A DNA stretch of 34,518 nt. Source: a virus (lineage: Duplodnaviria > Heunggongvirae > Uroviricota > Caudoviricetes). A program made the position numbers and the translations under genes. Position 1 is the stretch's first letter, and the number at the start of each line of letters is the position of its first letter. The stretch lies in IMG/VR virus record IMGVR_UViG_3300029653_000081, positions 1 to 34,518 of that record, one strand, 5' to 3'. This document shows, piece after piece, positions 2,207-31,381 of the stretch. A model generated the notes under the pieces. The model saw only the letters and a list, made by a program, of their open reading frames with translations, was not told the DNA's origin and made no database searches.

Positions 2207-2223
2207 TTTGCTCTAATAAATTT
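2207..2223 (+). promoter_or_regulatory. C1 repressor operator (Op53-like) overlapping the kilA-repL promoter
   Basis: TTTGCTCTAATAAATTT, 16 of 17 to consensus; TTGCTC is a -35-like hexamer with TATAAG/ATAAGT about 16 nt downstream. Confidence 0.8.
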
Positions 2224-2292
2224 CGTTTTATAAGTGCAAAGAATCACCATTTCGAGCTGGTGATTGAAGGTTGATGCAAATTTGGAGAAAAA

Positions 2293-8187: not shown

Positions 8188-9915
8188 TTACTCAGAGTCA
8201 CCGGCATCAATCGTGTCGCCGCTAATGAAGTTAAGCCCGCCTTTTTTGGCCATTGTCAGCGTTACACGAGTGAAGTAATCAGCGCCGTTGCGTGGGTGCA
8301 TATCGTTGATAGCCGAACCCCACAGCGTGGTACGGTTGACCAGCGCCGGAGTGGTCGGATGCTGGAACGGGATGGCCGGGACAGCATCACCAGTCACGAA
8401 GCCTGCTTTACCCGGATTTTCATCACGGACGTAGCACAGCACATCCATCGAGCTGAACTGAATGTTCTCTGTCGTTAAGTTCTTACAAATACCAGCAGGT
8501 ACTTCGTACACTTTCACGTTACCGAACAGGGTACCGATGTAGTGAACATACGGAGTCTGGATATAGTCTTCGGCTGGCTGGAAGAAATCCTTCGGCAACT
8601 GTTTGAAGAAAGATGCTGCATCAGCACCAGCAAACATCCCCATCGCACCAGAAGATTTAACGCGCTCAATAATGTCGCGATATACAGTCTGGAATTTGCC
8701 ACGAATGATGGTTGCCCATACATCAAAGGACTGGTTAACCGGCAGAGCGATGTCAAAGGTGTCGGTCGCAAGAGTACGCCAGATCATGATGCGAAGACGC
8801 AGCATATCCTGTTCATGAGACAGGTATTCCTTCAGGGTGCGGAACTGTAGGGAACCCAGGTCCAGACCAAATTCACGCTGTGCTTCATACGCCGCCTGTA
8901 CCGTGTGCTCAGCCGCGATAACGAACTGGCTTGGGAACAGGGTGTATTTCTTCATTTCGTGGTTGATCAGCGGGATCAGCTCAGGAGCGGCTTCAATATT
9001 GATTTCCGTCTCAATTGCGATCTCAGTGCCTTTATCCGGCGCTTTGGAGAACGACAGTGCAATCTGACCAATGTTGTAGTTCAGAGAGCAGGTAACAGTG
9101 ATTTGCTCACCAGCAGCATTAGTAAACGAGTGAAGTAGGCTGCCGGAACCGTTATCAACAACAGACTTAATACGGTTAACGTAGATATTAGTGCGACCTT
9201 TTCGGATTGGTACATTCTGGCCTTCGAAGTCTTCCATCTTGAAGGTTGCGGTTTTGCTGGTGCCATCGGAGCTTGCCACCAGCACATAGCGGCGGCGTAA
9301 CTGGCTGTACACACCGACGGATTGCATGTCCAGAACATCACCAGCAGCATAAGAACCAAAAGAGGAACCTGCCACGTTAAAGACTTCATAGATGTCGGAC
9401 TGGTCACGCGTAACCGGAATGAAGGTACACGCATCAGCGGTAGCTGCCCCCAACTGAACAGGCAGGATCATCGCGAGGAATAAAGGCAGACGCATAACAC
9501 CGTCAGAAACGCTCATCATCTCTGCTGCGACGGATTCCAGCATCGCTTTATTAGTGGCATCCATGCTATTGCGGGTGGACTCAATCAGGCAGTTTTCCAG
9601 CGTCTGGTGGCAGGAGGCCAGAATTTCCGGACGCGGCATAGATTTATGTGCTGCGGCGTAGTCAGCCAGTGCACTTGCCCACGCTGTAGCGATTTGAGCG
9701 GTGGCATTATCAGAGATACCCGCAAAAACCGGGTCTTTACGTGCAGCTTCAAGGATAGATGCGGCACGCGCGGCATCATCTTTAATGAATTGGTTATCAG
9801 TACCGAACTGCGCAGTGCTTGCCCAGCCAAGCACAGCTTTAGAGCGTTTTGCGATATCTGCAATACGATTCTGGTATTCGCGTAAGTTACTCAATTTACT
9901 CTTCCTTAAACACAA
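8188..9915 (-). CDS. Putative major head protein (575 aa as tracked; real start probably a few codons in)
   Basis: Large ORF adjacent to parS, as recalled for P1 gene 23. The tracked start is TTG; AAGGAAGAG precedes a second TTG five codons downstream. Confidence 0.4.
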   Translation of the reverse strand: MCLRKSKLSNLREYQNRIADIAKRSKAVLGWASTAQFGTDNQFIKDDAARAASILEAARKDPVFAGISDNATAQIATAWASALADYAAAHKSMPRPEILASCHQTLENCLIESTRNSMDATNKAMLESVAAEMMSVSDGVMRLPLFLAMILPVQLGAATADACTFIPVTRDQSDIYEVFNVAGSSFGSYAAGDVLDMQSVGVYSQLRRRYVLVASSDGTSKTATFKMEDFEGQNVPIRKGRTNIYVNRIKSVVDNGSGSLLHSFTNAAGEQITVTCSLNYNIGQIALSFSKAPDKGTEIAIETEINIEAAPELIPLINHEMKKYTLFPSQFVIAAEHTVQAAYEAQREFGLDLGSLQFRTLKEYLSHEQDMLRLRIMIWRTLATDTFDIALPVNQSFDVWATIIRGKFQTVYRDIIERVKSSGAMGMFAGADAASFFKQLPKDFFQPAEDYIQTPYVHYIGTLFGNVKVYEVPAGICKNLTTENIQFSSMDVLCYVRDENPGKAGFVTGDAVPAIPFQHPTTPALVNRTTLWGSAINDMHPRNGADYFTRVTLTMAKKGGLNFISGDTIDAGDSE

Positions 9916-9939
9916 GGCACTTGTGTGAATCCCTTTTCG

Positions 9940-10070
9940 GAAGAGATTTTATTGAAAGTCACTTGTTGACTTTCTCGCTAAAAGTAATTTTTTAAATTTT
10001 TTGTGCGGGGGAGGGGGGCAAGTAAAACAGGCGTGAAATCGTGGGAATTTCAGTCTGAAATTTTCCATGA
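9940..10070. promoter_or_regulatory. parS: parS-like partition site downstream of parB
   Basis: Heptamers related to ParB box A (gtgaaat 10033-10039, atttcag 10047-10053, ctgaaat 10055-10061) next to an AT-rich tract (10070-10100) that could be an IHF site. Confidence 0.5.
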
Positions 10071-10160
10071 ATATCTATATATATCATATATTTATACATG
10101 AAATAGGCGCGGGACATTTTAGACAGGGGAGGGGGCTAAAGCCGCCTCCCACCAGCGGGA

Positions 10161-11126
10161 TTATTCCCCAGCAGACATTTTCCCAATGATTTTTTTTATT
10201 GCTTCGTCAATTTCAGTTTGCACTTCAGACGGGAGTCTGGAGAACTCGTAGGCGACAACCCGTTTTTTCGGATCGGACTTCTTTCGGGCATATTGGCGAC
10301 GGTCAGAGAAGTCTCGCAGCTTCTCAACCACCACAGATTTAACCGGCGCGGGCTTCAGGCTTTTGCTTTCCGCTTTGAAGATAGCCAGTATCTTCGCTTT
10401 ATCCTCTTTCGCGCCCTCAGTCTCTGCAATTCGTTCGCGCACCGTATCAACCAGCTCTTCAATCGGCACGCTTTTAGCGTTAGCATCCTCGGCGATCTGG
10501 AGCAGTAACTGGTAATCTGGAAGGGCGAGATCGCTGGCTACGGGGAAGACAGCAATCATCTCATCCGGCACCGCGGCAGCCTGGAAAGCTCGCGTCACTT
10601 TTGCCTTTGAGATGTTCTCAGCTCGGGCGATCTCTTCTTTGGTCATATTCTTACCGTACATAACCTCGAAGCGTTTACCCAGCTCGCGCAGAGTGTGTTC
10701 GCGGGCTGTCTGGATATCAATGGCCAGCTGGCGGGCATCCGCCAGGCTGATCTCATCTTTCGTCACCAGAATCTCAAATTTCGTTTCATTGAAGATACAC
10801 GCAGCGCGGCGACGCGATCCGTCCAATACCTCAATGCGCTCCCCAACCATACGACCGATAGCCGGGAAGAACTGTTGCAATTTAATGGTGCGGGAAATAT
10901 CGCTTACCGACTCAGGGGTGAGCAGAGACTGATCGCGGCCGTTAACTGCCGGGTCAACGAACGTGCGCGACTCAATCTCACCACTCAGCACGACGGTAAG
11001 CAAGAATTTAGCCTGGCGGCCAGATTTTAGGGTAAAGGTTTTGGTGCCTTCACTGCCTTCAAGCATGCGAGCAAACTCGGAGCTATTCTTGCCCAGCACT
11101 CGTCCACGGGAAACTATTTTTTTCAT
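10161..11126 (-). CDS. parB: Partition protein ParB
   Basis: 321 aa with ParB-like segments (GRDQSLLTPESV, LDGSRRRAA, SKAKVTRAFQAAA); overlaps the parA stop. Confidence 0.9.
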   Translation of the reverse strand: MKKIVSRGRVLGKNSSEFARMLEGSEGTKTFTLKSGRQAKFLLTVVLSGEIESRTFVDPAVNGRDQSLLTPESVSDISRTIKLQQFFPAIGRMVGERIEVLDGSRRRAACIFNETKFEILVTKDEISLADARQLAIDIQTAREHTLRELGKRFEVMYGKNMTKEEIARAENISKAKVTRAFQAAAVPDEMIAVFPVASDLALPDYQLLLQIAEDANAKSVPIEELVDTVRERIAETEGAKEDKAKILAIFKAESKSLKPAPVKSVVVEKLRDFSDRRQYARKKSDPKKRVVAYEFSRLPSEVQTEIDEAIKKIIGKMSAGE

Positions 11127-12334
11127 GCCGCCTCACCCCTAACAAACTCAATTCGATCAAACACAGCCTTAGTGAAACGCTCGGCCTCGGTTCGTGCCTT
11201 CTTCAGCGCCTCTGCACTGCCTGGATACGATTGCGGGTTGGCACTGATTACGGTGTCGAAAGACTCGCCGCATCGCTCAAAGCCATCCAGACGAGGCAGA
11301 GAAGAGTCCAGAATGTTGCTGGCGTAAACCTCACGCGCAAGGCTGTGTGATGTCTCGTGATCGCGCTTGCCGGTCATCTTCGACATAAAACCAATGCTGG
11401 CGCTCAAACGCGGTTCTACGCCTTCCTCCTCCAGTTGCTCCAGCATTTCTGGCAGACGGGTGAGATATTTCAGTGTTGAGTGGAAGTCAACCTGGGCTGG
11501 TGGGGTAGGGGTAAGCAGCAAATCGCTGGCCGCCAGACCGTTGAGCAGGAACGGATCCAGGTGTGGACCGGTATCAATAAAGATAAAGTCATAATCATCC
11601 GCAACACGATCAATGATATTGCGTCGAAGGATTTCGTACTGATTTTGTCCGGGAAGATGCTCTTCAACCAGCTCTTTCCATTGGCTGGCAACAAAGCCAT
11701 CGTCGATAGAGGCTGGAATCACGTCTACGCCAGGAACGATGGTCGGACGAATCACCTCTTTGCGTAGCGTCTCCGCGTCCAGGTCGTTCAGCATCGCCTG
11801 CGCGGCGGTTTCCAGGATGGAACCAATACTGTGAGTATGGTCGAGGAACATTGTGCTGGATGCCTGAGGGTCAAGGTCAATTACCAGAATGCGCAGATCG
11901 TGACGCAGTAAATCCTGATGCACACGCAGAGCGTGCGCCAACGTGACTGTGGAAACCGTTTTGGATACGCCACCCTTCAGGTTTACGACAAAAATAACGT
12001 AAGGCGATTTGTGAATGTCGCGATATTTGGGGATCTTACGGTGGGCATAGATATCAATGACGTTCTGGATGGTCAGCGCGTACTGTTCAACGTTACCGAC
12101 CTGTTTCTTGTTGAACTGGTACCCATCATCTTCCATCTCTTTGATGGCCTGCTCCACAATACGGCGGCTCAGCTTCGGCAACTTTGCCACAGCGTTACGA
12201 GTGAACGTCTGATAATACTCGGTCTGATTGAACTCTTTGCGCTGATCTTCAATATCCTGACTCATGGCCTTAAGTAATGCGCTTGCACGAAGAGCTATGG
12301 TGCCGACACCGCCGTAATCGCGTTTCATCATCAT
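11123..12334 (-). CDS. parA: Partition ATPase ParA (type Ia)
   Basis: 403 aa; deviant Walker A NLKGGVSKTVST, plus VIDLDPQ and FIDTGPHLD motifs; long N-terminal extension typical of P1-type ParA. Confidence 0.9.
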   Translation of the reverse strand: MMMKRDYGGVGTIALRASALLKAMSQDIEDQRKEFNQTEYYQTFTRNAVAKLPKLSRRIVEQAIKEMEDDGYQFNKKQVGNVEQYALTIQNVIDIYAHRKIPKYRDIHKSPYVIFVVNLKGGVSKTVSTVTLAHALRVHQDLLRHDLRILVIDLDPQASSTMFLDHTHSIGSILETAAQAMLNDLDAETLRKEVIRPTIVPGVDVIPASIDDGFVASQWKELVEEHLPGQNQYEILRRNIIDRVADDYDFIFIDTGPHLDPFLLNGLAASDLLLTPTPPAQVDFHSTLKYLTRLPEMLEQLEEEGVEPRLSASIGFMSKMTGKRDHETSHSLAREVYASNILDSSLPRLDGFERCGESFDTVISANPQSYPGSAEALKKARTEAERFTKAVFDRIEFVRGEAA

Positions 12335-12430
12335 CTCCTTATCATTTCGTATGAGTGAATTGTACGTTTGATTCTGCTACGTGCAACTTTTTTTGATTCG
12401 TGCGTCAATTATTGCACGTAAAGAAATGGC

Positions 12431-12730
12431 GATGTGGCTATTAGATGTGTGCTGGAGGGATGATGCAGGACCAGAATGTGCGATAGAGGGAAGTCGCATT
12501 AAATTATGTGCTGTGGAGGGATCGCTGGTATCAAATATGTGTGCTGGAGGGAAAGGCAGAGAATTACATGTGCACTGGAGGGAAAAACGGATGGACAGAT
12601 GTGTGCTGGAGGGAAAGTCTGGGCAAACTGCGGGGCGTCCCCCTCCAGCGCACATCAAAAACAGGAAATTAGACAAGCCTTCCCGGCAGCACACATATTT
12701 TTAATGCAGCTTCCCTCCAGCACACACTTA
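12431..12730. repeat. incA: incA iteron array (about nine 19-bp RepA-binding repeats, both orientations)
   Basis: Direct copies of (G)ATGTGTGCTGGAGGGAAA-like repeats near 12444, 12474, 12504, 12536, 12567, 12598 and inverted copies near 12639, 12678, 12710. Confidence 0.85.
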
Positions 12731-13588
12731 TTCTGGGAGTTTCAGCTTTGGATTGCGAGAATGGACGATTACAAAACTTTCCCGGCCTTTCTTCTCAATT
12801 GAACAGTCGAGATAGCCGATTGTTTTAAGCTGTTCTATCGCTTTCTTAATGATACGGTTTTGCTCGCCAACAGCTGACTGCAAAGCCAGGCGCTCACGGA
12901 TTCGGGCGAAAGATAGCGGCAACGGATTCTGCGGAAGGCTTTCGATGAAAGTGTAAATGGCTTGTGCAGCTTCTTTCTTCGGAAGGGCACGCAAGGCGTG
13001 GTGTTGCAACAGAACGCGATAATCAAGCTGGAACAGCTCCCACAGCTTCGAATCAGCCTCCAGCTCTATCAGATCAAGGTCAGCATCAAAACGACCGACC
13101 TTTAGCAGACCAGTCTGATAGCCGCCTTTAGCATCTTTTCCGCGCTTAAAAGCGATACCCTTGTTACGTAAGCGTCCAAGTGATTCATGAATGGTTAAAC
13201 GCAGTTTCGCATCCAGACGTTTTGAGGGGAAACCACAGGCTTTAGCGAATTCCTGAAACGATAACTGGATGGTGTTTGAGGACAAGCCGTATTTGCTGAA
13301 CGCGTAGATGACACCGATCCACGTTTTGAAATCAGTATCCATATCGAGTCGAGGACCGGTGATTTTAATATCATCGTAACCCTCGGCTTTAGCTATCTCC
13401 AGCTGGGAAAACGCTTTGGTGGCATCAATCTCTTTACTTTCTCCTTTGCTCTTTGATGGCTTCGGAACGAATACCCCCAAGCGCATCAATGCTACAGGCT
13501 GGACAGTGTTGTTTGAATTAACTGTTAGTTCTTTTGCCTTACTTTCAATGTCTGCGTAAAGAATATCGGAGATAAATGATTGATTCAT
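12728..13588 (-). CDS. repA: Plasmid replication initiator RepA (286 aa)
   Basis: Flanked by iteron arrays on both sides and followed by parA-parB, the P1 plasmid replicon arrangement. Confidence 0.9.
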   Translation of the reverse strand: MNQSFISDILYADIESKAKELTVNSNNTVQPVALMRLGVFVPKPSKSKGESKEIDATKAFSQLEIAKAEGYDDIKITGPRLDMDTDFKTWIGVIYAFSKYGLSSNTIQLSFQEFAKACGFPSKRLDAKLRLTIHESLGRLRNKGIAFKRGKDAKGGYQTGLLKVGRFDADLDLIELEADSKLWELFQLDYRVLLQHHALRALPKKEAAQAIYTFIESLPQNPLPLSFARIRERLALQSAVGEQNRIIKKAIEQLKTIGYLDCSIEKKGRESFVIVHSRNPKLKLPE

Positions 13589-13599
13589 ATTACTTTTTC

Positions 13600-13870
13600 C
13601 GAATTGTGTGGATAGTTTTTATAAGTGGTGATAACTACCCAGGCTTTCCCGTCAGCACACATCCTATATCCCGCCAGCACACATTAGCAACCCGTCAGCA
13701 CACATTTTTATCCCTCCAGCACACATCGTTTTCCCTCCAGCACACATCGCGATACACTTCTAAGCCAGACGTGGCGCGGCCTGCAACGATCAGGGATCTA
13801 TATGGATCTAATTGGGATCTGTATGGACCTAATTATTGGATCTACCCAGTGGATAATGTGGATAAGTGAA
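13600..13870. other. oriR: Plasmid origin (oriR-like) including incC iterons
   Basis: Five inverted iterons (13645-13748, ...cagcacacat...); five heptamer repeats (G/T)GGATCT at 13793-13843, four with GATC; DnaA-box-like sequences tgtggatag (13607-13615) and agtggataa/tgtggataa (13848-13866). Confidence 0.85.
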
Positions 13871-13905
13871 AAACCGGCCAACATAGCCGGTTGGAAGGAA
13901 GGGTA

Positions 13906-14298
13906 TTATTCTACGCTTTCGATAAGAAGACCATGTTCATAGCATTTAAGCTCATCGCCTTCATACAGGAACTGGTATCCAATACCACCATATTCAGGCA
14001 CATTAGGGAATAACTCATCACTTACCGAAGAACAAATCACACCAATGCAGCGATCAACGCCTTCTCGTTCTTCAGTGCTGAAAAAATCCTCTTCGGTAAG
14101 AACATGAGTGCATTGCTCATCAGCATAGGTCGGAAATACATGCTCGATGCAATCCGGGTGTTTTAAACCAAGCTGATCGGCAAGCTCGAAAGCATGACGG
14201 TATTGTTCAGATCCTGGCTTGCCAACAGTGATTTGCTCAATTTTGTAGATTGAAGTCGCTTTGTTGATAGTTTGCTTTACTGTTACTTTATCAGACAT
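13906..14298 (-). CDS. Hypothetical protein (130 aa)
   Basis: ORF with coding-like composition next to the origin; no motif recognised. Confidence 0.35.
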   Translation of the reverse strand: MSDKVTVKQTINKATSIYKIEQITVGKPGSEQYRHAFELADQLGLKHPDCIEHVFPTYADEQCTHVLTEEDFFSTEEREGVDRCIGVICSSVSDELFPNVPEYGGIGYQFLYEGDELKCYEHGLLIESVE

Positions 14299-14309
14299 AA
14301 AAATCCCTT

Positions 14310-14642
14310 TTAGTTACCACTGATAGCGTGGTTGTAATCATTAACGTTGCGATTCTTCCTGTTAATCCCCATCAGCATCGTTTCTGTATCAAGGATATAG
14401 GCTGGCAGATCATCAAAATATTCACTGCTAAACTCTGGCATCCTGCACATAAACGCACTTTTGGGGGCAGGGTGATTAACCTTTGTCGGCGTCGGCGTTA
14501 AATTCGCTGATCGACTCCCGGAGCAACCGCTGAGTGTCAACAGGAATGCGCTGGCGAACACTACCCGACGCAACCAGTTGTTTCTGAACTTCAGCTTTTC
14601 GTTCCATTTGCCTGTCAGCATATTTGGCTTGTTCTGATTCAT
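14310..14642 (-). CDS. Outer-membrane lipoprotein, possible o-spanin (Rz1-like)
   Basis: Basic n-region KLKFRNNWLRR, hydrophobic VVFASAFLLTL, lipobox LSGC, then proline-rich PTPTKVNHPAPK. Its 5' part is embedded out of frame in the upstream gene. Confidence 0.5.
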   Translation of the reverse strand: MNQNKPNMLTGKWNEKLKFRNNWLRRVVFASAFLLTLSGCSGSRSANLTPTPTKVNHPAPKSAFMCRMPEFSSEYFDDLPAYILDTETMLMGINRKNRNVNDYNHAISGN

Positions 14643-14898
14643 TTTTCACTTCCTGGCTGTGAAAATGTTGCTCTGCTTTGTTCATCGTCTCAATGGTCTG
14701 GTTAAGATCCATTATTGACTTATCACGTTCCTTAACAGCCTGATCAAGACTGCCAATTTTCTCCATGGCTTGCTTTAGCTGATGACGTTCCCATGCAAAC
14801 CCAGCACCAACAAGTGCGCAAATCAGAACAAGAACACCAGTAGCAGCAAGTTTCTCCTTCAAAGACAAAGCTGTTTTTAACGTAGAAAAGAATGACAT
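14476..14898 (-). CDS. N-terminally anchored coiled-coil protein, possible i-spanin (Rz-like)
   Basis: ATG at 14898 preceded by AGGAGG; single TM segment TGVLVLICALVGAGFAW then a charged helical region. Overlaps the lipoprotein gene as in Rz/Rz1 pairs. Confidence 0.5.
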   Translation of the reverse strand: MSFFSTLKTALSLKEKLAATGVLVLICALVGAGFAWERHQLKQAMEKIGSLDQAVKERDKSIMDLNQTIETMNKAEQHFHSQEVKNESEQAKYADRQMERKAEVQKQLVASGSVRQRIPVDTQRLLRESISEFNADADKG

Positions 14899-14937
14899 GT
14901 CTTCCTCCTGAAGAAAAATTATCAATGAAGTCCTTTG

Positions 14938-15726
14938 TTACTGTGCCGCTTTGTTTAATTCATCAAGAACAGAATCAGGAACCAAAGCGGCAACTGCGCT
15001 GGCTGTGCTGGCCTTATTTGCTGATGCTTCCGCAAGCGCGGTACCGATAGCATGGTTATAAGCAGTTATGGCTACGTTGGCGCTTTCATTCGCTCGTTCA
15101 TACTGCTGTTGTAACGCAGTTGTGGGCGCTGTTGTCTGGTTGAAAACAACCCCAAACTGTTCAGTTGCTACTTTCAGAGATTCAATTTGCTCTTCTGTTA
15201 GTGCTGGTGGGGGAGTGGCAGTGCCGCCGCCTGAACCAGAGCCTGACGAGCTTCCTGAGCCAGTGTTAAGGGTCTGGTTAATCTCCCCCATAGCAGCAAC
15301 TAAACTTGATGTATTAAGCGCGTTTACAGCGTCCTCAAGCGATTTAGTAATAGTCACATCACCAATGGCAATAGAGATCGGCAGTTCTGAAACTTCTCGC
15401 TCATTAGCACGGCAGTAAACATCCCAACCAATATCGAGTTGAAGCAGCATTGACAGATCTGCATAACCAGCCAACAGGTCCGCGTGCTTAGTTGCCAGTT
15501 CGACAATGTTCGTTAAGCCTGTTGTGGTTGTTCTGATCGTTGAAACATAACTGGTAATAGTGTCGGGATAGACAATTGTATCCAAAATTAATCCGATCAA
15601 TTCTTCTGCAAGCTGTTTTGCCGTGTTAGCACTGTTTCGTGCCGATGTTATGGCACCAAGTGTTTTCATCCCACCGGCTGCGGCCAATTTTTTATATGCG
15701 GATAACTGGTAGTCTTTTTCCAGCAT
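14938..15726 (-). CDS. Two-domain protein joined by a Gly/Ser-rich linker (about 262 aa), function unknown
   Basis: ATG at 15726 with AGGAG SD (tracked ORF extends to 15783); linker GSGSSSGSGSGGGTATPPP. Confidence 0.4.
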   Translation of the reverse strand: MLEKDYQLSAYKKLAAAGGMKTLGAITSARNSANTAKQLAEELIGLILDTIVYPDTITSYVSTIRTTTTGLTNIVELATKHADLLAGYADLSMLLQLDIGWDVYCRANEREVSELPISIAIGDVTITKSLEDAVNALNTSSLVAAMGEINQTLNTGSGSSSGSGSGGGTATPPPALTEEQIESLKVATEQFGVVFNQTTAPTTALQQQYERANESANVAITAYNHAIGTALAEASANKASTASAVAALVPDSVLDELNKAAQ

Positions 15727-15734
15727 GATATCTC

Positions 15735-16019
15735 CTAACTTACCTGAACTAGGCCGTCTCCGGACGCTACGGTAGATCCGCATGAAACAGGGTCACCAAC
15801 GCATACGATCCCTTTACCATTGACGGTAAACCATGCCCTGGTTGATATAGCTTGCCCACCGTGCGTACTGTTTCCATCGGTATGCTGTGCATATTGCTTA
15901 CCATCAACTAACACTTCGACTCCGTTGACTTTAAGTAGTGGTTCACTCTCTACAGGAGGCCTGGATGGGAATCCTCCGTGCCCCGAACAAATGCTGTCTT
16001 TTGTTGCAATACTTGCCAC
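15735..16019 (-). CDS. PAAR-like small protein (94 aa), possible tail spike tip
   Basis: GTG start; CSGHGG, THGG and VNGKGIVCVGDPVSCGS motifs resemble PAAR repeats. Confidence 0.45.
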   Translation of the reverse strand: MASIATKDSICSGHGGFPSRPPVESEPLLKVNGVEVLVDGKQYAQHTDGNSTHGGQAISTRAWFTVNGKGIVCVGDPVSCGSTVASGDGLVQVS

Positions 16020-16100: not shown

Positions 16101-16117
16101 ATTGCTCTAATAAATAT
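16101..16117 (+). promoter_or_regulatory. C1 repressor operator upstream of the uhr-rdgC-dmt operon
   Basis: ATTGCTCTAATAAATAT (16 of 17); TTGCTC -35-like with TTATAT/TATATC about 16-17 nt downstream. Confidence 0.8.
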
Positions 16118-16188
16118 TGTTTTTTATATCGTGTTTTCGGTACCATTCAGCCATCGCCCTTCAATGGGCATTTGTTTGGAGTCGTCAG

Positions 16189-22972: not shown

Positions 22973-22989
22973 ATTGCTCTAATAATTCC
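22973..22989 (+). promoter_or_regulatory. C1 repressor operator, left member of an inverted pair
   Basis: ATTGCTCTAATAATTCC; the 5' 13 nt match the consensus. Confidence 0.7.
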
Positions 22990-22997
22990 ATATTTTT

Positions 22998-23027
22998 AAA
23001 ACGTGATGTACACTCATCACGTTTTTT
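22998..23027 (+). terminator. Rho-independent terminator between the operator pair
   Basis: aaaacgtgatg-tacact-catcacgtttt (11-bp stem) followed by tt. Confidence 0.7.
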
Positions 23028-23038
23028 ATTAGAGCAAT
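23022..23038 (-). promoter_or_regulatory. C1 repressor operator, right member of the inverted pair
   Basis: Minus-strand ATTGCTCTAATAAAAAA; arrangement resembles bidirectional paired operators described for P1. Confidence 0.7.
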
Positions 23039-23272: not shown

Positions 23273-24535
23273 ATGAGCACTTCAGCACAAAAGCAATCAA
23301 TCGAAAATGTATCTATCCCTGATGTCCTGAATGCCGGTATCCCGGCCATTATCCAGAACATCCGGGCCGCGCAACGCCGCGTTAGTTGTGATGACCTCAC
23401 AGCACGTTTTTTTGATAATGCGGTTCAGTCAGCGGAGATGCTTCACGCACAGCTTATTGATGTTTATAACGCAGAAGCTGATAGCCATAACTCCCTGGTA
23501 GATGCAGCTGAAAATATGCAGTTGGATCTCGGTCTGAAGGGTAAAGAAATTGAAGAGCTTCAGCTGCAAATTGAACATTTGAAACGCCAGCAACAGGACG
23601 CGATCGACGATGCGACGCATGACTCCAACCAGCGTGCTGATAATGCCGAACGTATAAGCATTGAGCTGGAAACAAAACTCAATGAAATGACCGCGATGGT
23701 TGAACTGCGGAACTCACAGATTTCAACGCTAAAATCTCAATATAAAGAGATCATGAAACTTGATCCTTTTAACCTTGAGAAACGCTATAACAAAGCTAAA
23801 AGCGAGCGACAGGAACTGCGTAAGCAGGTCGCCGACCTTAACCAACAGCTCAAAAAAACTATTAAAGATGCAAGCGAGGCGCGCGTGGCATTTGCTAATA
23901 AAAAAGCAGAGGTTACCGCGCTGGTTAATGAGAATGCCAAATTTGCGACGCTCAAGAAGGAAATGTATGGCATTACTGAGCGCCGTTTCCCTGCAAGCAA
24001 ACTTCATCCGACGTTAGGGCAAATCTCCTTCTTCCCGCGCCTCCTGGCTTATGGGATCTCATCGCCTAAAGAGTTCAATAACGAGCGTCCTTATATCGTT
24101 TCTAAGCTGGACTTTGCTTATCAGTTCTGCTGCGACATGGGCTATGCCATTGATATCCGAATCAACGAATGGTTGATGCCAAACTTCCAGCCGTTGGCAA
24201 TTTTCCGCGAGTTTCAGCCGGAAGGTTGGGTAGAGTTCTTCCATGAATTGATCTGTAAAGAGATGGAAAGCCGCCGCCCGGAATTGGTCCGTCGAGTTGA
24301 GTGGGCGCAAGAGGTTATGTTGGCAGATGCAGAGCTGCCGTTCGAACCGGAATTCATTGATGATCTGGCAACTAAAGGGCTGCATACCCTGTTTGATGTG
24401 GTTACCCGCCGTCATGAGCAGTTGGTTGTCGAATTGGGTTTAGAGGAAACTGCGGCAAGAAGACTTCTCGATGTTTGCTATGCACGTAGCGATGCATGGG
24501 AAAAAGAGAACGGCGGCACTATTTACGTTCGCTGA
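23273..24535 (+). CDS. Coiled-coil protein with unknown C-terminal domain (420 aa)
   Basis: Residues about 60-250 are heptad-like and Q/E/K-rich (EELQLQIEHLKRQQQDAIDDA...); C-terminal region contains FAYQFCCDMGYAID. Confidence 0.5.
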   Translation: MSTSAQKQSIENVSIPDVLNAGIPAIIQNIRAAQRRVSCDDLTARFFDNAVQSAEMLHAQLIDVYNAEADSHNSLVDAAENMQLDLGLKGKEIEELQLQIEHLKRQQQDAIDDATHDSNQRADNAERISIELETKLNEMTAMVELRNSQISTLKSQYKEIMKLDPFNLEKRYNKAKSERQELRKQVADLNQQLKKTIKDASEARVAFANKKAEVTALVNENAKFATLKKEMYGITERRFPASKLHPTLGQISFFPRLLAYGISSPKEFNNERPYIVSKLDFAYQFCCDMGYAIDIRINEWLMPNFQPLAIFREFQPEGWVEFFHELICKEMESRRPELVRRVEWAQEVMLADAELPFEPEFIDDLATKGLHTLFDVVTRRHEQLVVELGLEETAARRLLDVCYARSDAWEKENGGTIYVR

Positions 24536-24607: not shown

Positions 24608-25114
24608 TTGAGTATTTTCAATAAACACGCACACCAGGAACGTCCGTACATCGTCATAGTAGATATTGATGGGACGATATCAGAGGCAACGGAAGACAGG
24701 CTGCATTTACTTCCACCACCTGGCAAAGGTGCATTAACAGAGCACTGGAACGAGTTTAACCTTGCCTGTGACACTGATGCTCCCATCACTCCAGTTATTG
24801 ATATGGTGCGCCAGTTATTTAACGTTTACACGGTCTGGTTTGTAACCGGGCGCTGTGAGATCGCAAGGGATAAAACACGAGCCTGGCTGCGGAAGTACGT
24901 AACAAACGGGGCTGAGCCTTTGCTATCTATGCGTCCTGCCACCGATGACAGAAATGACGGTCCAGCAAAGATTGATCTCCTGAAGAAAATTGGTCTAAGT
25001 AAAATTGCGTTCGCGCTGGAAGATAAGATTGAAGTGGCGCGTGTGTTCAGGAGTCATGGCGTACTTACATTAATGGTCAGGGAGTATGAAAATGCGCTTC
25101 TTCATCAACAATAA
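24608..25114 (+). CDS. HAD-superfamily phosphatase-like protein (168 aa)
   Basis: TTG start 6 nt after AGGAGG; motif I IVIVDIDGT and motif II-like WFVTGR. Confidence 0.55.
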   Translation: MSIFNKHAHQERPYIVIVDIDGTISEATEDRLHLLPPPGKGALTEHWNEFNLACDTDAPITPVIDMVRQLFNVYTVWFVTGRCEIARDKTRAWLRKYVTNGAEPLLSMRPATDDRNDGPAKIDLLKKIGLSKIAFALEDKIEVARVFRSHGVLTLMVREYENALLHQQ

Positions 25115-25130
25115 TTGTTCTAATAAATCT
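25114..25130 (+). promoter_or_regulatory. C1 repressor operator abutting the HAD gene stop
   Basis: ATTGTTCTAATAAATCT (15 of 17); TTGTTC -35-like with TAAAAC about 17 nt downstream. Confidence 0.65.
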
Positions 25131-25212
25131 TGATTTTTAAAACAGAGAAAGTAAAAATAAAAACATGCCGCAAGGCGCGGCATGTTTCCAATCAATCACA
25201 GGAGCTGAAAAT

Positions 25213-25299
25213 ATGAACACGGCATTCAAAATCATTATGGCCGCGATCTATTTCTGGCTGTTCTCTATCACTTTTGACGGCATCGTCGCGCATGGGTAA
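25213..25299 (+). CDS. Small hydrophobic peptide (28 aa)
   Basis: AGGAG 8 nt upstream of ATG; MNTAFKIIMAAIYFWLFSITFDGIVAHG*. Preceded by a perfect 8-bp hairpin (catgccgc/gcggcatg, about 25165-25185). Confidence 0.4.
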   Translation: MNTAFKIIMAAIYFWLFSITFDGIVAHG

Positions 25300-25378
25300 G
25301 GGGAGTATATTAGCCATTTGGAACCCCACGAGCTCTTGCGGGTTTAATTAAGAACCCGCAAGAAAAACACGAATTGGG

Positions 25379-28300
25379 CTATATTTTTCCGCCTACGCCT
25401 TTAAACTTCTCAATAAACGAGACGATTTTCTGGAAAACTGCCTGTTTTTTCGTTTTATATTGCGGATTCAACGGACTAAGTTTTGGTAATGTTTCGTTTA
25501 ATTCTGTGCCATTTTCGGTGGCGTATTCGCGTTTTAAAGACGTGCGAATATAGCGTTTTGCTGCATCTTCATTGAGATTTTCTTCTTTTATCAATGCTTC
25601 TGCTTCACGTTGCTGTTCGCGTTGAGCAAACGTAAAGAATGCCTCAATGATACTGGCTTTGTCTGGTAAATCATCCAGGTTCGTTTGCTGAATAAAATCG
25701 ACCACCAGGCCCTCTTTCGCCCGGTTCCCCAGGCTTGAACGAATTAAGCGTTTGACCTCTTCGATCATTTCGCCCTTGCCTTTATTTTGTCTGTTGTGTT
25801 CGAAAATCAGTCCAAGGATATAATCCAGGTTTATTTCCTGAGACTTCAGCAAATCGACCTCAAAAACCACGTCATCCCAGTCAGTGGTTGATTTCTCTTT
25901 TTTCTCAGCTTCTTTCTCACGGCGCTGCCAGTCGCGAATATCGTTATAGGCAGAACGATAATCCTGAATCTTGCGATCAGCAGGGAGACGAATTGTTTGC
26001 AATTCAGCGAACTTTTCATCATCCACATAATGTTCTGCTTTGAATTTTTCTACCGCAACAGGATCGCTAAGATCGATTTGTTGCAGGGCTTTTAGCGTGG
26101 CAAATTCATCATAGTTTTGCAGGATGTTCTCGGCACGCAGGTATTCGCCAAACAGTTTAACGAAGTCTTTCTTCTCTTTTTCACTTTCAATACTGGCAGG
26201 GTCAGGGAACCGTTGTTCCAGTTCTGAAACTACTGCCATAAAGCCGCGTTTGGCTTCACCGGTGGCAGCATCAGTAAAACCTTCCATATACTCTGCATAA
26301 CTCTTTTCTAACACCACATTTTTGGTATTTTTATCACCAAACAGCGTTATGGCATCAATGGTTGAGCGTTCCAGATCCCGAAAAGTGACAATGTTACCGA
26401 AGGTTTTAGTGGCGTTATAAATGCGGTTGGTGCGGGAAAATGCCTGCATCAGGCCGTGAAAACGCAAGTTTTTATCGACGAATAGCGTGTTCAATGTTGG
26501 AGCGTCGAAGCCGGTTAAAAACATCCCAACGACAATTAACAGATCGATATCCTGATTTTTAACCCGTTGGGCTAAATCGCGATAGTAGTTCTGAAAACCG
26601 TTACCGTCGGTGCTGAAGTTAGTTTTAAAATAGCTGTTATACTCACGAATTGCAGCGTCAAGAAACTCTTTAGCACTGCTGTCCATTGCGCTGGTATCAA
26701 AAGTTTCATCGGAAATTTCACCAATGGCATTTTGTTCTTCATTAGCGGCAAAGGAGAAGATTGTCGCAACACGCAGCGGTTTATAAGTTGCAGATTTATT
26801 AGCGGCTTCCTCTTGTAACCGTTTAAACGCCGCGTAATAGGCTTTTGCAGCATCCACGCTGCTCACTGCCAACATAGCATTAAAACCTTTTGCGCCAGGG
26901 AAAGTACGGTGCGTCTTCTGGCGGAAGTTATTCAGAATATATTGCGTAATTTCCTGTATACGCATGGGATGAAGAAACGCCTGCTGATTTTCAGCCGCAC
27001 TTAGTTTTTTCTCGTCAGTTTCTGTCTCTAAAGACTTAAACTGTGGCCGCACATCGTTGTAGTCCACCTTGAATTTGAGCACTTTTTCATCACGAATCGC
27101 ATCGGTAATTACATACGAATGCAATTCACGACCAAATACGCTGGCGGTCGTTTCTGAGCCTAAGGCGTTTTCCGGGAAAATAGGTGTGCCGGTAAAACCA
27201 AACTGATAATAGCGTTTGAATTTCTTCTTCAGGTTTTTCTGCGCTTCTCCAAACTGGCTGCGGTGGCATTCATCAAATATAAACACCACTTGCTGATTAT
27301 ATACAGGCAGGTCGCTTTCTGCTTTCATCAGGTTATTGAGTTTCTGAATAGTAGTGACGATAATTTTGTTATCGTCCTTATCCAGATTTCGTTTAAGGCC
27401 TGCGGTATTTTCCGAGCCGTTGACGCTGTCTGGCGAAAAACGCTGATATTCCTTCATGGTCTGGTAATCGAGGTCTTTCCTGTCGACCACAAAGAAGACT
27501 TTATCAATAAAGTCCAGCTCTGTTGCCAGACGCGCGGCTTTAAAGCTGGTGAGGGTTTTACCAGAACCGGTAGTGTGCCAGATATACCCACCGCTTTCCG
27601 GTTTTGACCAGTTCTTCGCTGTAAAGGAACTCTTAATTTTCCACAGAATGCGCTCGGTGGCGGCAATCTGGTACGGTCGCATCACCAGTAGCGTCTGACT
27701 ACTGTCAAAAACGCTGTAGTTCACCAGAACATTCAGCAGAGTATGTTTCTGGAAAAAGGTAGCGGTAAAGTCTTTGAGGTCTTTAATCAGCGTGTTGTCT
27801 GATTTCGCCCAATTCATGGTGAAGTCAAAACTGTTTTTATCGCGCTTTGTCGTGTTGGCAAAATAACGGGTATCGGTGCCGTTAGAAATGACAAACAGTT
27901 GCAGATACTTAAACAGGGAATTTTCGCTGTTAAAACTCTCTTTACTGTAACGATGTATCTGGTTGAAAGCCTCACGAATCGCCACCCCGCGTTTTTTTAG
28001 TTCGATTTGCACCAGCGGTAAACCATTAACCAGGATCGTGACGTCATAACGGTTAGCATGAGAACCCGTCTGTTCAAACTGCTGGATAATCTGCACCTTA
28101 TTGCGCATGAGATTCTTTTTATCTATCAAATAGATGTTCTCAAGTCGCCCGTCATCAAAAATAAAGTCGCAGATATAGTCGATATGGATTTTACGGGTTT
28201 TATCCAGAATACCATCGCTGGGGTTGTCCAGATACTGCTCCGTGAAGCGCCGCCACTCGCTGTCATTAAACATCACACCATTGAGGCTCTGAAGCTGTTC

Positions 28301-28495
28301 CCGAACATTGGACAGCATTGCCGACTGTGATTTTACGGAAATAAATTCATAACCCTGATTTTGCAGGTCCTGAATCAGTTCACGTTCCAGGTCCGATTCG
28401 CTCTGGTAGCTGTCGCCTGTTGGCTCAGCTTTGATGTACTTATCAAGAACGATAAAGTTATTGGATTCAGCAATGGTGTGTGTCTGATGAGTCAT
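25379..28495 (-). CDS. hsdR: Type I restriction enzyme R subunit HsdR (1038 aa)
   Basis: Helicase motifs TTGSGKT and [10 protein letters not shown]; size and position after hsdM-hsdS. Confidence 0.9.
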
Positions 28496-28616
28496 AGCGC
28501 ATCCTTTGTGCCGTCTGGCAAGGGCCGGAAGGGGGGTAATGGTGACTTCCGGCGCGTAAAAAATAGTCTATATACTGACCGGGTGTTAAGGTGGTCCGAT
28601 CGGTAGCAATGATCAA

Positions 28617-29822
28617 TTAATTACTGGCAGTTTCAGGTTTCGGGAAACTGAACAGTAAATCACGGTAGTATTCGTATTGTTTCTGGCGCAACTCGATTTC
28701 ACGCGGAAGACCTTCGGTGATGGAAGCTGCGATTGCATCAAACTTATCCAGAATATCCACAATACGCCCCTGTTCGTCTAAAGATTTTTGAGGGTGAGAT
28801 GGGTATGGAATAGGTACTCTGACTTGTTTCAGTGCATTAGCATTAAACTGTGGTTGCCCACCACCAGATACTAATTTATTAGCCTGTTCCCAAAAAAAAT
28901 CACTTTGTGCAAAGTGCCAGTAATATTTGGCATTAATAATCGTTTTATTTAGGTTCAACTTTATTAAAAAACCAGCGTATACTGCTGGATAATCTTCTTC
29001 AAAAATCATTGTTTTACCAAAGGTTGCCCCAGTTCTTGCCATGAGTAAATCATTTTTGTCTAAGGTATATTTCTCATTTTCCTCATTTAATTCAACGTAC
29101 ATTGGGTTTTCTTTCGATAGCTTCCCGTCTTTATTTATGTCAGTAATTCTCACGAAACGGGCATCTCCTGAATCCATGGCTTTGGCTGCATATCCATATG
29201 TAAAATCTCCAATTTCCCCCAAAGTCTTCCACTCAACCTCACCATCTTTAAAACTCAACAACTGGTCGCGATAGTAGTTGTACTGTTTTTTACGCATGTT
29301 AAGCTCAGCGGTAAGCTCAGCGGTAAGTGCAGTAAATTTATCCAGAATCCGAACGATTTCAGACTGGATGGCAAGGGATTTTTCCGGATTATCCGGGCAG
29401 GGGATGGGGATAGGGAAATTCTCTAAGGTTGATAGCACGATATATGTCATTGCCGCGCTATTTGTTCTTTCCTCGAGATATTTCTTCAGGCTATGGCTAA
29501 GCACAAAATACAAAAATCTAACACTTACATTTTCGTCGAAATTTGTCAGAACATAGGTGCGCTGATAAGCCTCAAACTTGCCGATGTAATGCTTCACCTC
29601 ACCAACATTCGCATTGCCTGCAATCAGCAATGCCTCTGTATCCCAGCGGAATTTATCAATTTTGCTTGTCTCTTTGGCTGTCGTGAAGAACATATACTCT
29701 CCATCATCAACAGCCGCATTCGCATTAAGCTTTCCTGTTTCAATTTTGCAAGTTTGCCCAAGTGTCTTCCACTCAACCTCAACCCCATCCAGCAATTTTT
29801 CCAGATAACTCATCTCGCTCAT
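28617..29822 (-). CDS. hsdS: Type I specificity subunit HsdS (401 aa)
   Basis: Two target-recognition halves each ending in a conserved repeat ([19 protein letters not shown] and [19 protein letters not shown]); 4-nt overlap with hsdM. Confidence 0.85.
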
Positions 29823-31381
29823 TTCTGCACCTCGCAGCCTTCAATTTCAGCCACAATTGCATCAATATCTTTACGCAACTGGTCGATTTTGCTGACCGTG
29901 GTTTTCAGCTCTGCATTCAGCTCACCGATATCGATAATTTCGCGGTTATCTTTCGCTTCCACATAGCTGCTCACCGACAGGTTATAGTCATTCGCGACAA
30001 CAGTCTCAAACGCAACAGATTTCGCCAGATGAGCAACATCTTCCTTGCTGGCAAATACCTGCATAATCTGTTCGATATGGGCATCGGTCAGGATATTGTT
30101 GTTGGTTTCTTTTTTGAACAGTTCGCTGGCATCAATAAACTGAACTTTGGTATCCGTTTTATGTTTAGACAGCACCAGAATGTTTACAGCAATAGTGGTG
30201 CCAAAGAACAGGTTCGGTGCCAGTGAAATCACGGTTTCGACATAGTTATTATCGACCAGATACTGACGGATTTTCTGCTCCGCGCCGCCACGGTAAAAAA
30301 TACCCGGGAAGCAGACAATCGCAGCACGACCTTTGGCCGAAAGATAGTTCAGCGCATGTAGTACAAACGCAAAGTCAGCTTTGGATTTGGGGGCCAGGAC
30401 GCCAGCCGGGGCAAAACGTTCATCGTTAATCAGCGTCGGGTCATCGCTGCCAATCCATTTCACCGAATACGGCGGGTTAGAAACGATGGCATCAAACGGT
30501 TTTTCATCTCTGAAGTGTGGCTCAGTCAGTGTATTACCCAGCTTGATATCAAACTTGTCGTAGTTGATGTTGTGCAAAAACATGTTCATACGTGCCAGGT
30601 TATAGGTTGTATGGTTGATTTCCTGACCAAAAAAGCCTTCTTCGATGATATGGTTATCAAACTGCTTTTTAGCCTGCAACAACAGTGAGCCGGAACCCGC
30701 TGCCGGGTCGTAGATTTTGTTAACGTTGGTCTGCCCGTGCATAGCCAGTTGTGCAATCAGCTTGGAGACGTGCTGCGGTGTAAAGAACTCACCGCCTGAC
30801 TTACCGGCATTTGCCGCATAGTTAGAAATCAGGAACTCATAGGCATCACCGAACAGGTCAATCTGATGTTCGTTGAAGTCACCAAGTTTTAACCCTTCAA
30901 CCCCTTTCAGAACCGCAGCCAGGCGGGCATTTTTATCTTTAACGGTGTTACCCAGGCGGTTACTGGTGGTATCGAAATCAGCAAACAAACCTTTGATGTC
31001 TGCTTCTGAAGGGTAGCCGTAAGCAGAACTTTCGATAGCAACGAAGATGCTGTTTAAATCTGCGTTCAGTCTGTCATTGGTATTTGCTTTCGCAGCTACG
31101 TTGCAGAAAAGCTGACTGGGGTAGATGAAGTAGCCTTTAGTTTTGATGGCATCGTCTTTAATGTCATCAGTAATTACGCTGTCATCCAGTTTCGCATAAC
31201 AGATACTGTCATCACCGGCTTCAATATAACTGGAAAAATTTTCGCTGATAAAACGGTAGAAAAGTGCGCCCAGAACGTATTGCTTAAAATCCCATCCATC
31301 GACCGAACCCCTGACATCGTTAGCAATTTGCCAGATTTGACGATGAAGCTCTGCACGTTGTTGAATACTTGTCATTTTCAT
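29819..31381 (-). CDS. hsdM: Type I N6-adenine methyltransferase HsdM (520 aa)
   Basis: NPPY motif ([10 protein letters not shown]) and AdoMet-binding [11 protein letters not shown]. Confidence 0.9.

Follow-up and report, generated by a model that had tools for sequence, protein, structure and literature searches.

The DNA analysed here, hereafter the window, is the 34,518-nucleotide stretch of the IMG/VR virus record IMGVR_UViG_3300029653_000081 (Caudoviricetes), a P1-like phage-plasmid. Our subject is a compact module directly downstream of pap (24608-25114), itself preceded by pmgS (23273-24535), in which an operator for the C1 repressor, a promoter, a leader hairpin (hairpin 1) and a 28-codon open reading frame (ORF) follow one another and face a convergent type I restriction-modification operon. 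The region around the small ORF is 95-100% identical to phage P1 and to hundreds of P1-like plasmids, and from pap via the operator Op88 to the small-ORF stop the window shares ~98% DNA identity with P1. We consider it likely that this region represents the conserved head of a C1-repressed early operon in P1-like phage-plasmids, and that the 28-amino-acid (aa) ORF is a genuine membrane-peptide gene. The operator and the promoter are already known from P1; the small gene and the conserved 5' hairpin are absent from the P1 reference record, which annotates no coding sequence between pap and pmgT and neither hairpin 1 nor the small ORF, and we found no description of the ORF or the hairpin in the literature on pmgT, Op88, the peptide sequence or P1 transcriptomics. 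The module consists of the following features.

25114-25130, plus strand: C1 operator ATTGTTCTAATAAATCT, beginning at the pap stop codon, the homologue of P1 Op88/OpmgT (from the P1 annotation at the aligned position)
25130-25158, plus strand: predicted sigma-70 promoter equivalent to P1pmgT (-35 TTGATT at 25130-25135, a 17-nucleotide (nt) spacer, -10 AAAAAT at 25153-25158)
25115-25120 and 25138-25143, plus strand: -35 and -10 of the alternative promoter P2pmgT, predicted in the P1 record
25161-25171/25177-25187, plus strand: hairpin 1, 11 base pairs (bp) in the window, loop AAGGC (from folds)
25147-25190, minus strand: hairpin 1 read on the opposite strand together with a T-tract (TTTTTATTTTTAC), intrinsic-terminator-like (from a terminator scan)
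25188-25204, plus strand: unstructured leader CCAATCAATCAC with Shine-Dalgarno sequence AGGAG at 25200-25204 (from conservation and folds)
25213-25299, plus strand: small ORF of 28 codons plus TAA (ATG at 25213, TAA at 25297-25299), peptide MNTAFKIIMAAIYFWLFSITFDGIVAHG

Much of this layout had been anticipated by the original prediction, which was made from the letters of the window alone. Its C1 operator with promoter-like spacing corresponds to P1 Op88/OpmgT at 25114-25130 and to the 17-nt promoter spacer; its perfect 8-bp hairpin is present as a core at 25164-25184, displaced by about one base and extending to 11 bp; the leader that it called structured holds a hairpin that covaries across lineages; and the AGGAG and the encoded peptide match exactly. 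It had also proposed conservation across P1-like elements as a check on the ORF, and the reading frame, start codon and Shine-Dalgarno sequence are indeed kept in distant relatives.

Operator and promoter at the head of the module

The C1 consensus ATTGCTCTAATAAATTT is 17 bp long and asymmetric, and the operator departs from it by 2 mismatches (15/17 bases identical). When up to 3 mismatches are allowed, the window contains 7 such sites against 0.28 expected. The first base of the operator is also the last of the pap stop codon, and its final base opens the -35 hexamer. In the P1 record the 17 aligned bases carry the label OpmgT (formerly Op88), a monovalent C1 operator that overlaps the predicted sigma-70 promoters P1pmgT and P2pmgT; Citron, Velleman and Schuster (1989, as cited in PMC1934351) reported Op88 to be one of the P1 operators for C1. 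The assignment of the window operator as a real C1 operator, homologous to Op88/OpmgT, is thereby supported on sequence grounds. Its position directly after pap and the placement of the -35 and -10 are those of P1, and the positions of the -35, the 17-nt spacer and a -10 of the form NANAAT are kept in all sister lineages.

The window operator differs from P1's own Op88 by one base. The operator occurs as a pair of variants, ATTGTTCT and ATTGCTCT, distinguished by a C-to-T change at operator position 5; the T at this position (window 25118) is a rare allele here and the normal base in the sister lineages L167-L169. Two rare alleles, the C-to-T at 25118 and a G22D change in the peptide at 25277, are carried by the window and three identical loci. 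Variation across 165 loci is unevenly distributed, with ~0.7 variant alleles per site in the operator and promoter spacer (25114-25160), many of them singletons, and ~0.25 in hairpin 1, the ribosome binding site region and the ORF; A/G changes are concentrated in the spacer between the -35 and the -10.

A hairpin at the predicted start of the transcript

Hairpin 1 is built on the perfect core CATGCCGC/GCGGCATG (25164-25171/25177-25184), most relatives having a core of 9 bp, and in the window its centroid fold has a free energy of -16.9 kcal/mol with z = -3. The sister lineages have a wholly different stem sequence, yet a hairpin is found at the same place, 5-8 nt past the -10 hexamer and therefore at the predicted 5' end of the transcript. 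In an alignment of six sequences, which is a small sample, both sides have changed in 5/9 pairs. The proportion of alignment cells that are paired is 90.6%, compared with at most 50% when the partner columns are slid, and the observed covariation score was reached by none of 500 shuffles. The G-U pairs fit an RNA of the plus strand in four of five cases (L168, L171/L173 and the P1-clade variants at 25171 and 25164). Because it lies at the predicted 5' end and its G-U pairs favour the plus strand, hairpin 1 is most likely a 5'-terminal stem-loop of the plus-strand mRNA.

Decay of mRNA in E. coli that depends on the 5' end is well established and underlies the protective reading of such a hairpin; the literature on RNase E and RppH describes 5'-terminal stem-loops that stabilise bacterial mRNAs, for example in the ompA 5' untranslated region (UTR). 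By analogy, hairpin 1 most probably shields its transcript as a 5'-terminal stabiliser. The resemblance to stem-loops of the ompA type lies in a GC-rich hairpin at the predicted +1/+2, followed by an unstructured ribosome-binding segment and conserved through covariation. Unlike these, the loop in the sister lineages is itself conserved, which hints at something beyond simple end protection. This 9-nt loop reads GCRCTWYCA (L170 3958-3966, L086 5541-5549 and L167/L168/L171) or ATGCTTTCA in L200, and since it is kept while the stems covary, sequence-specific recognition of the loop is hinted at. The P1 clade has a different loop of 5 nt, AAGGC, and six of its loci carry a GG insertion.

A hairpin also lies within ~30-60 nt downstream of other C1 operator-like sites of the window (2207-2290, 16101-16180 and 22973-23038). 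One example is the AATCACCA...TGGTGATT that follows the operator at 2207; another, AAAACGTGATG...CATCACGTTTT, separates the operators paired at 22973 and 23022. Transcripts under C1 control may generally carry a hairpin close to their start.

The same element has a second appearance on the opposite strand. Read on the minus strand, hairpin 1 with the TTTTTATTTTT behind it is the sole canonical terminator-like site reported by the terminator scan in 24900-25600, and in the P1 clade it has the look of a textbook terminator. A search of the same interval against Rfam gave nothing significant (best expectation value (E) 0.068, well below the gathering score), and the sub-threshold matches fell on the minus strand only, reflecting the terminator-like hairpin. 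In the window, hairpin 1 may serve as the first terminator for leftward transcription of hsdR, in which case the hsdR 3' UTR would be antisense to the peptide gene. Since the sister lineages have no T-tract after the hairpin on either strand, a minus-strand terminator is not the conserved role of hairpin 1.

This arrangement brings to mind a type I toxin-antitoxin-like module, in which a membrane toxin would be silenced by a cis-antisense RNA ending at hairpin 1, with the hsdR 3' UTR as the candidate here. Like type I toxins (TisB, Hok, Ldr, Ibs, ZorO, DinQ), the peptide is small (28 aa), consists essentially of one hydrophobic helix and is encoded on a mobile element; the minus-strand RNA has a good fold (z = -4.3), and no terminator lies between hsdR and the ORF. 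Against it, no promoter-like site was found on the minus strand by scan or by eye, and no antisense RNA gene was found; the T-tract is missing in all sister lineages though the hairpin is retained, the stem G-U pairs suit the plus-strand RNA, and P1 has no leftward transcription unit nearby. The peptide matched no Hok, Ldr, TisB, Ibs, Fst or other Pfam family at E up to 10, NCBIfam and PADLOC likewise gave no match at cut-offs of E = 1-10, and the best Rfam value was the one given above. In type I toxin genes the ribosome binding site is blocked by a long, folded 5' UTR, whereas the site here is predicted to be open and control lies with a phage protein repressor; this repression by C1 argues against a role for the peptide in the lysogen. 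We therefore regard a toxin-antitoxin module as very unlikely, and retain the reading of hairpin 1 as a stem-loop of the plus-strand leader.

The small reading frame and its relatives

Downstream of the hairpin, the motif CCAATCA(ATCA)C.GGAGC is near-invariant in all lineages, and the leader around it diverges. Between the hairpin and the AUG the RNA is predicted to be unpaired in every lineage, leaving the ribosome binding site open, and in the window AGGAG and ATG are separated by a spacer of 8 nt. The product of the ORF is predicted to be a peptide with a single transmembrane helix, the best 19-residue Kyte-Doolittle window scoring 1.9-2.4 in every family member. A longer reading of 44 aa from an ATG at 25165, annotated in phage phi456, was considered and rejected: its start lies within the hairpin stem and has no Shine-Dalgarno sequence, and the sister lineages start at the downstream ATG.

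The evidence that carries the case for a gene comes from distant relatives, which were sought by protein searches, a profile search of 1.84 billion protein representatives and DNA pattern scans. The full layout of operator, -35, 17-nt spacer, -10, hairpin, CCAATCA..C.GGAGC, ATG and small transmembrane ORF recurs in at least six further P1-like lineages, represented by Cronobacter phage JK004, L167-L173, L170/L199 and L200-L202. In JK004, whose Pap is 72% identical, the sequence 3' of pap contains ATTGCTCTAATAAATAT, a promoter of the same spacing, a GC-rich hairpin and the motif CCAATCAATCACCGGAGCC, followed by an ORF of 53 codons that aligns with the P1 peptide at its N-terminus. The other members occupy the same syntenic position, namely P0023/L167, P0024/L168-169, P0025/L171-173, P0026/L170/L199 (48 aa) and L200-L202 (46 aa), so that homologues outside the P1 clade measure 46-53 aa in at least six lineages, and across the family the helix is followed by a tail of 0 to 30 residues. 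The profile search returned syntenic members only, and BLASTP of the P1 peptide against P0023 gave E = 3e-4. The start codon, Shine-Dalgarno sequence and reading frame are retained in seven lineages including P1, and the protein alignment keeps the hydrophobic helix along with the invariant residues M1, K6, A11 and W15.

Constraint on the amino acid sequence is visible over codons 1-25, where the ratio of nonsynonymous to synonymous differences per site (pN/pS) in the ORF frame is 0.24 when P1 is compared with L170, 0.32 when it is compared with L200 and 0.27 between L170 and L200; values in the other two frames are 0.85-1.75. Between lineages pS reaches 0.6-0.8, meaning that synonymous sites are saturated. 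Within the JK004 clade the 53 codons yield a pN/pS of 0.42, compared with 0.98 and 1.02 in the other frames. We conclude from these comparisons that the small ORF is very probably a genuine gene, the evidence from distant relatives being decisive and that from close relatives weak, and that the P1 form is the shortest member of its family. The family itself is a new, uncharacterised group of small phage membrane proteins.

In some divergent lineages pap is absent and the module stands directly after pmgS (L170 3834-4001, L171 3833-4001); since the module is present even there, it is tied to the downstream operon and not to pap. Scans of genome contigs and of IMG/VR with Pap recovered close P1 relatives only, and most results of a metagenome pattern scan were chance matches.

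Several observations weigh against this interpretation and have to be set beside it. Across 165 loci of the close P1 clade, in 89 distinct rows, the ORF has no codon periodicity, with 13 variant alleles at codon positions 1 and 2 against 7 at position 3, and it differs in this from pmgS and pap taken together (104:186; Fisher p = 0.015). This absence, combined with the singletons A11E and L16Q in the same clade, indicates that the 28-aa version could be weakly constrained or decaying. The peptide is altered in 13/23 loci of the hsd type, compared with 3/54 of the pmgT type; the proportion of nonsynonymous to synonymous changes does not differ between them (8:7 and 3:4). The window's own allele, D22, is rare, P1 and most relatives having G22, and it places an Asp within the hydrophobic segment. 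Neither the 28-aa and 44-aa forms nor the 53-aa relatives gave a significant match in Pfam, NCBIfam, PHROG or PADLOC, so that these searches provide no functional hint. Finally, the promoter was not called by our custom consensus scan, and its assignment relies on the P1 annotation and on positional conservation.

Some of these observations would be expected if the ORF had arisen by chance in a non-coding 5' leader of the pmgT operon. It is unannotated in the P1 reference and matches no protein family, its close relatives lack codon periodicity, and the database proteins matching the 28-aa form are all at least 93% identical to it and bear automatic names only ("hypothetical protein", "membrane protein"). 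A chance ORF is nevertheless hard to reconcile with a start codon, Shine-Dalgarno sequence and frame that are kept despite the saturation of synonymous sites, with a pN/pS well below 1 in this frame only, or with a profile search of such breadth that returned nothing but syntenic members, and we assign this explanation only a very slight chance of being correct.

More weight can be given to the possibility that the ORF is a translated leader only, serving to couple translation to the next gene through a functionless peptide, in which case it would be a relic in the window. The ORF stop lies near or overlaps the next start throughout: in P1 it is 9 nt upstream of the pmgT ATG on the same strand, in L200 it is 7 nt upstream of the next start, and in JK004, L167-L171 and L170 the two overlap as ATGA or TGATG. 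The variable length of the C-terminal tail, the lack of periodicity in the P1 clade and the more frequent peptide changes in hsd-type loci point the same way. The low pN/pS on the transmembrane core, in this frame only, would however be unexpected if translation alone mattered, as would the invariance of K6, A11 and W15; pmgT possesses a strong Shine-Dalgarno sequence of its own (GGGGGA), and 23/23 hsd-type loci retain an intact ORF together with the Shine-Dalgarno sequence and ATG that belong to it. A pure coupling leader is thus weakened by the amino acid constraint yet possible, particularly in the P1 clade, and overall we judge it rather unlikely.

If the small ORF is instead a gene for a membrane peptide, as we favour, its expression can be pictured as follows. 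In the lysogen, C1 bound to the single operator overlapping the -35 would keep the promoter shut. Upon infection or induction the promoter would fire, with a transcript start predicted at, or within 1-2 bases of, the GC-rich stem-loop, which would most probably act as a stabiliser of the mRNA 5' terminus. The conserved, unstructured leader would then offer a strong Shine-Dalgarno sequence and the AUG to ribosomes, and the 28-residue peptide, essentially one transmembrane helix, would be translated and presumably inserted into the inner membrane, as its hydropathy suggests. In P1 and the sister lineages the peptide gene would be the first cistron, from which ribosomes could reach the next gene by translational coupling; in the window, where the cargo has been swapped for a convergent hsdRSM, the peptide gene would be left as the only cistron.

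A peptide of 28 aa that is made when the lytic programme begins is not a holin; our guess is that it acts early in lytic growth by modulating a membrane target of the host. MgrB, MgtR and SidA are small single-pass membrane regulators of bacteria and phages, and the peptide resembles them in having fewer than 50 aa, one transmembrane helix, a short or absent soluble tail and specific transcriptional control. There is no sequence relationship to these proteins, and the comparison is an analogy only. P1 is a model phage, and among the Enterobacteriaceae P1-like phage-plasmids commonly carry genes for resistance and defence; a small membrane protein absent from the reference annotation, encoded by a conserved gene under repressor control, would add one early P1 function.

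The restriction cassette and the exchange of cargo

Beyond the small ORF the window departs from P1, lacking pmgT, pmgU, pmgV and the genes up to phd and carrying a convergent hsdRSM in their stead.

25304-25378: 75-nt spacer holding a second hairpin (hairpin 2), starting where P1 homology ends (25303/25304)
25379-31381, minus strand: type IC (EcoR124-family) hsdRSM cassette (from ORFs and the HsdR match)
25379-28495, minus strand: hsdR, convergent with the small ORF, stop codon at 25379-25381
28617-29822, minus strand: hsdS
29819-31381, minus strand: hsdM

HsdR matches EcoR124 HsdR (2w00) over its full length, all 1038 residues. The left junction lies 4 nt past the small-ORF stop codon, and P1 homology resumes at window 31482 (P1 87970), just upstream of phd and doc, so that the cassette replaces ~3.5 kb of P1 (84483-87969) comprising pmgT, pmgU, pmgV, upfM-O, hot, lxr and the humD region. 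The convergence of ORF and hsdR described in the original prediction is confirmed, as is its second 10-bp stem-loop between the ORF and the hsdR stop, which sits one base further right than first placed: hairpin 2 (cttgcgggtt/aacccgcaag) occupies 25335-25344/25353-25362 and reaches 11 bp when t25334-a25363 is counted. Hairpin 2 was not reported by the terminator scan and is no canonical terminator on either strand: its stem is preceded by a T-run in the minus-strand reading and followed by an A-run in the plus-strand reading. We rejected it as a general terminator of type IC hsdR genes; a 92%-identical hsdR in another plasmid (L174) loses homology exactly at its stop codon, and the 75-nt spacer is absent beside it. 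Hairpin 2 belongs to the spacer, which arrived with this version of the cassette.

Of the 83 related loci, pmgT follows in 57 and the hsd spacer in 22, and all 22 of the latter share one identical junction, which therefore reflects a single replacement event. In a further ~280 plasmids, mostly IncF, the match is confined to the final 84 nt before the junction (window 25220-25303). In one example, L085 (NZ_CP014498.1 pZH193, 8249-16018), IS1 is inserted at ORF codon 3, and hsdRSM and phd-doc come next; the interrupted ORF is left without its start, Shine-Dalgarno sequence, hairpin and promoter. As hsdRSM is kept in these IS1-cut plasmids, the restriction system is maintained without the promoter, hairpin and start codon of the module. 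The P1 record remarks that this stretch resembles DNA found downstream of hsd in EcoDXXI and R124/3. The IncF block agrees with that remark and implies that the EcoR124-type system and the phd-doc addiction module moved between P1-like and F-like plasmids as one block.

These observations bear on the suggestion that the position of the peptide gene facing the R-M operon is meaningful. That suggestion did not hold: the same operator, hairpin and ORF are present in P1, next to pmgT, and the occurrence of the module without hsd, the single cassette swap and the IS1-cut IncF copies together indicate that the position facing hsdR is incidental. A related possibility is a restriction-linked device, in which derepressed transcription from Op88, running antisense into hsdR, would lower restriction at the onset of lytic growth, and the peptide might act on the R-M complex. 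Its appeal derives from the convergent layout, with no plus-strand terminator between the ORF and hsdR, and from the promoter, hairpin and ORF being intact in all hsd-type loci. The head module, however, predates hsd and occurs in P1 and all sister lineages without an adjacent hsd; the one shared junction offers no independent replication; and in the ~280 IncF plasmids hsdRSM persists although IS1 has destroyed the module. We consider such a device improbable; convergent transcription running into hsdR after induction may be a side effect. We return to the reading of the region as an operon head whose downstream genes vary.

No homology was found between the P1 cargo, PmgT, and the cargo of JK004, and the 105-aa gene of L170 gave a weak winged-helix hint only in Pfam. 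With unrelated genes downstream in P1 and JK004, the head is therefore the conserved unit and the cargo is exchangeable, and the spot at 25303/25304 looks like a hotspot for cargo exchange. This layout of constant head and variable cargo marks a precise exchange point for accessory cassettes, here EcoR124-type restriction. The practical value is modest: the P1 annotation can be corrected, and the supposed functional tie between peptide and restriction genes is set right.

A broader proposal may be formulated in three parts. The Op88 head would serve as a conserved platform for expression, bordering a hotspot of cargo exchange; the micro-protein would be a functional early gene that the annotation of this model phage has missed; and in hsd-type loci the platform would have been co-opted, the hsdR 3' UTR running antisense over the peptide gene as far as hairpin 1, its terminator, and silencing leaky peptide expression in lysogens, and convergent transcription from the platform lowering hsdR expression after C1 inactivation. 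That all three parts hold together is, in our estimation, unlikely.

Other rearrangements occur at or near the same point: L025 is without pmgT, and in L007 the break falls inside the ORF, at codon 20.

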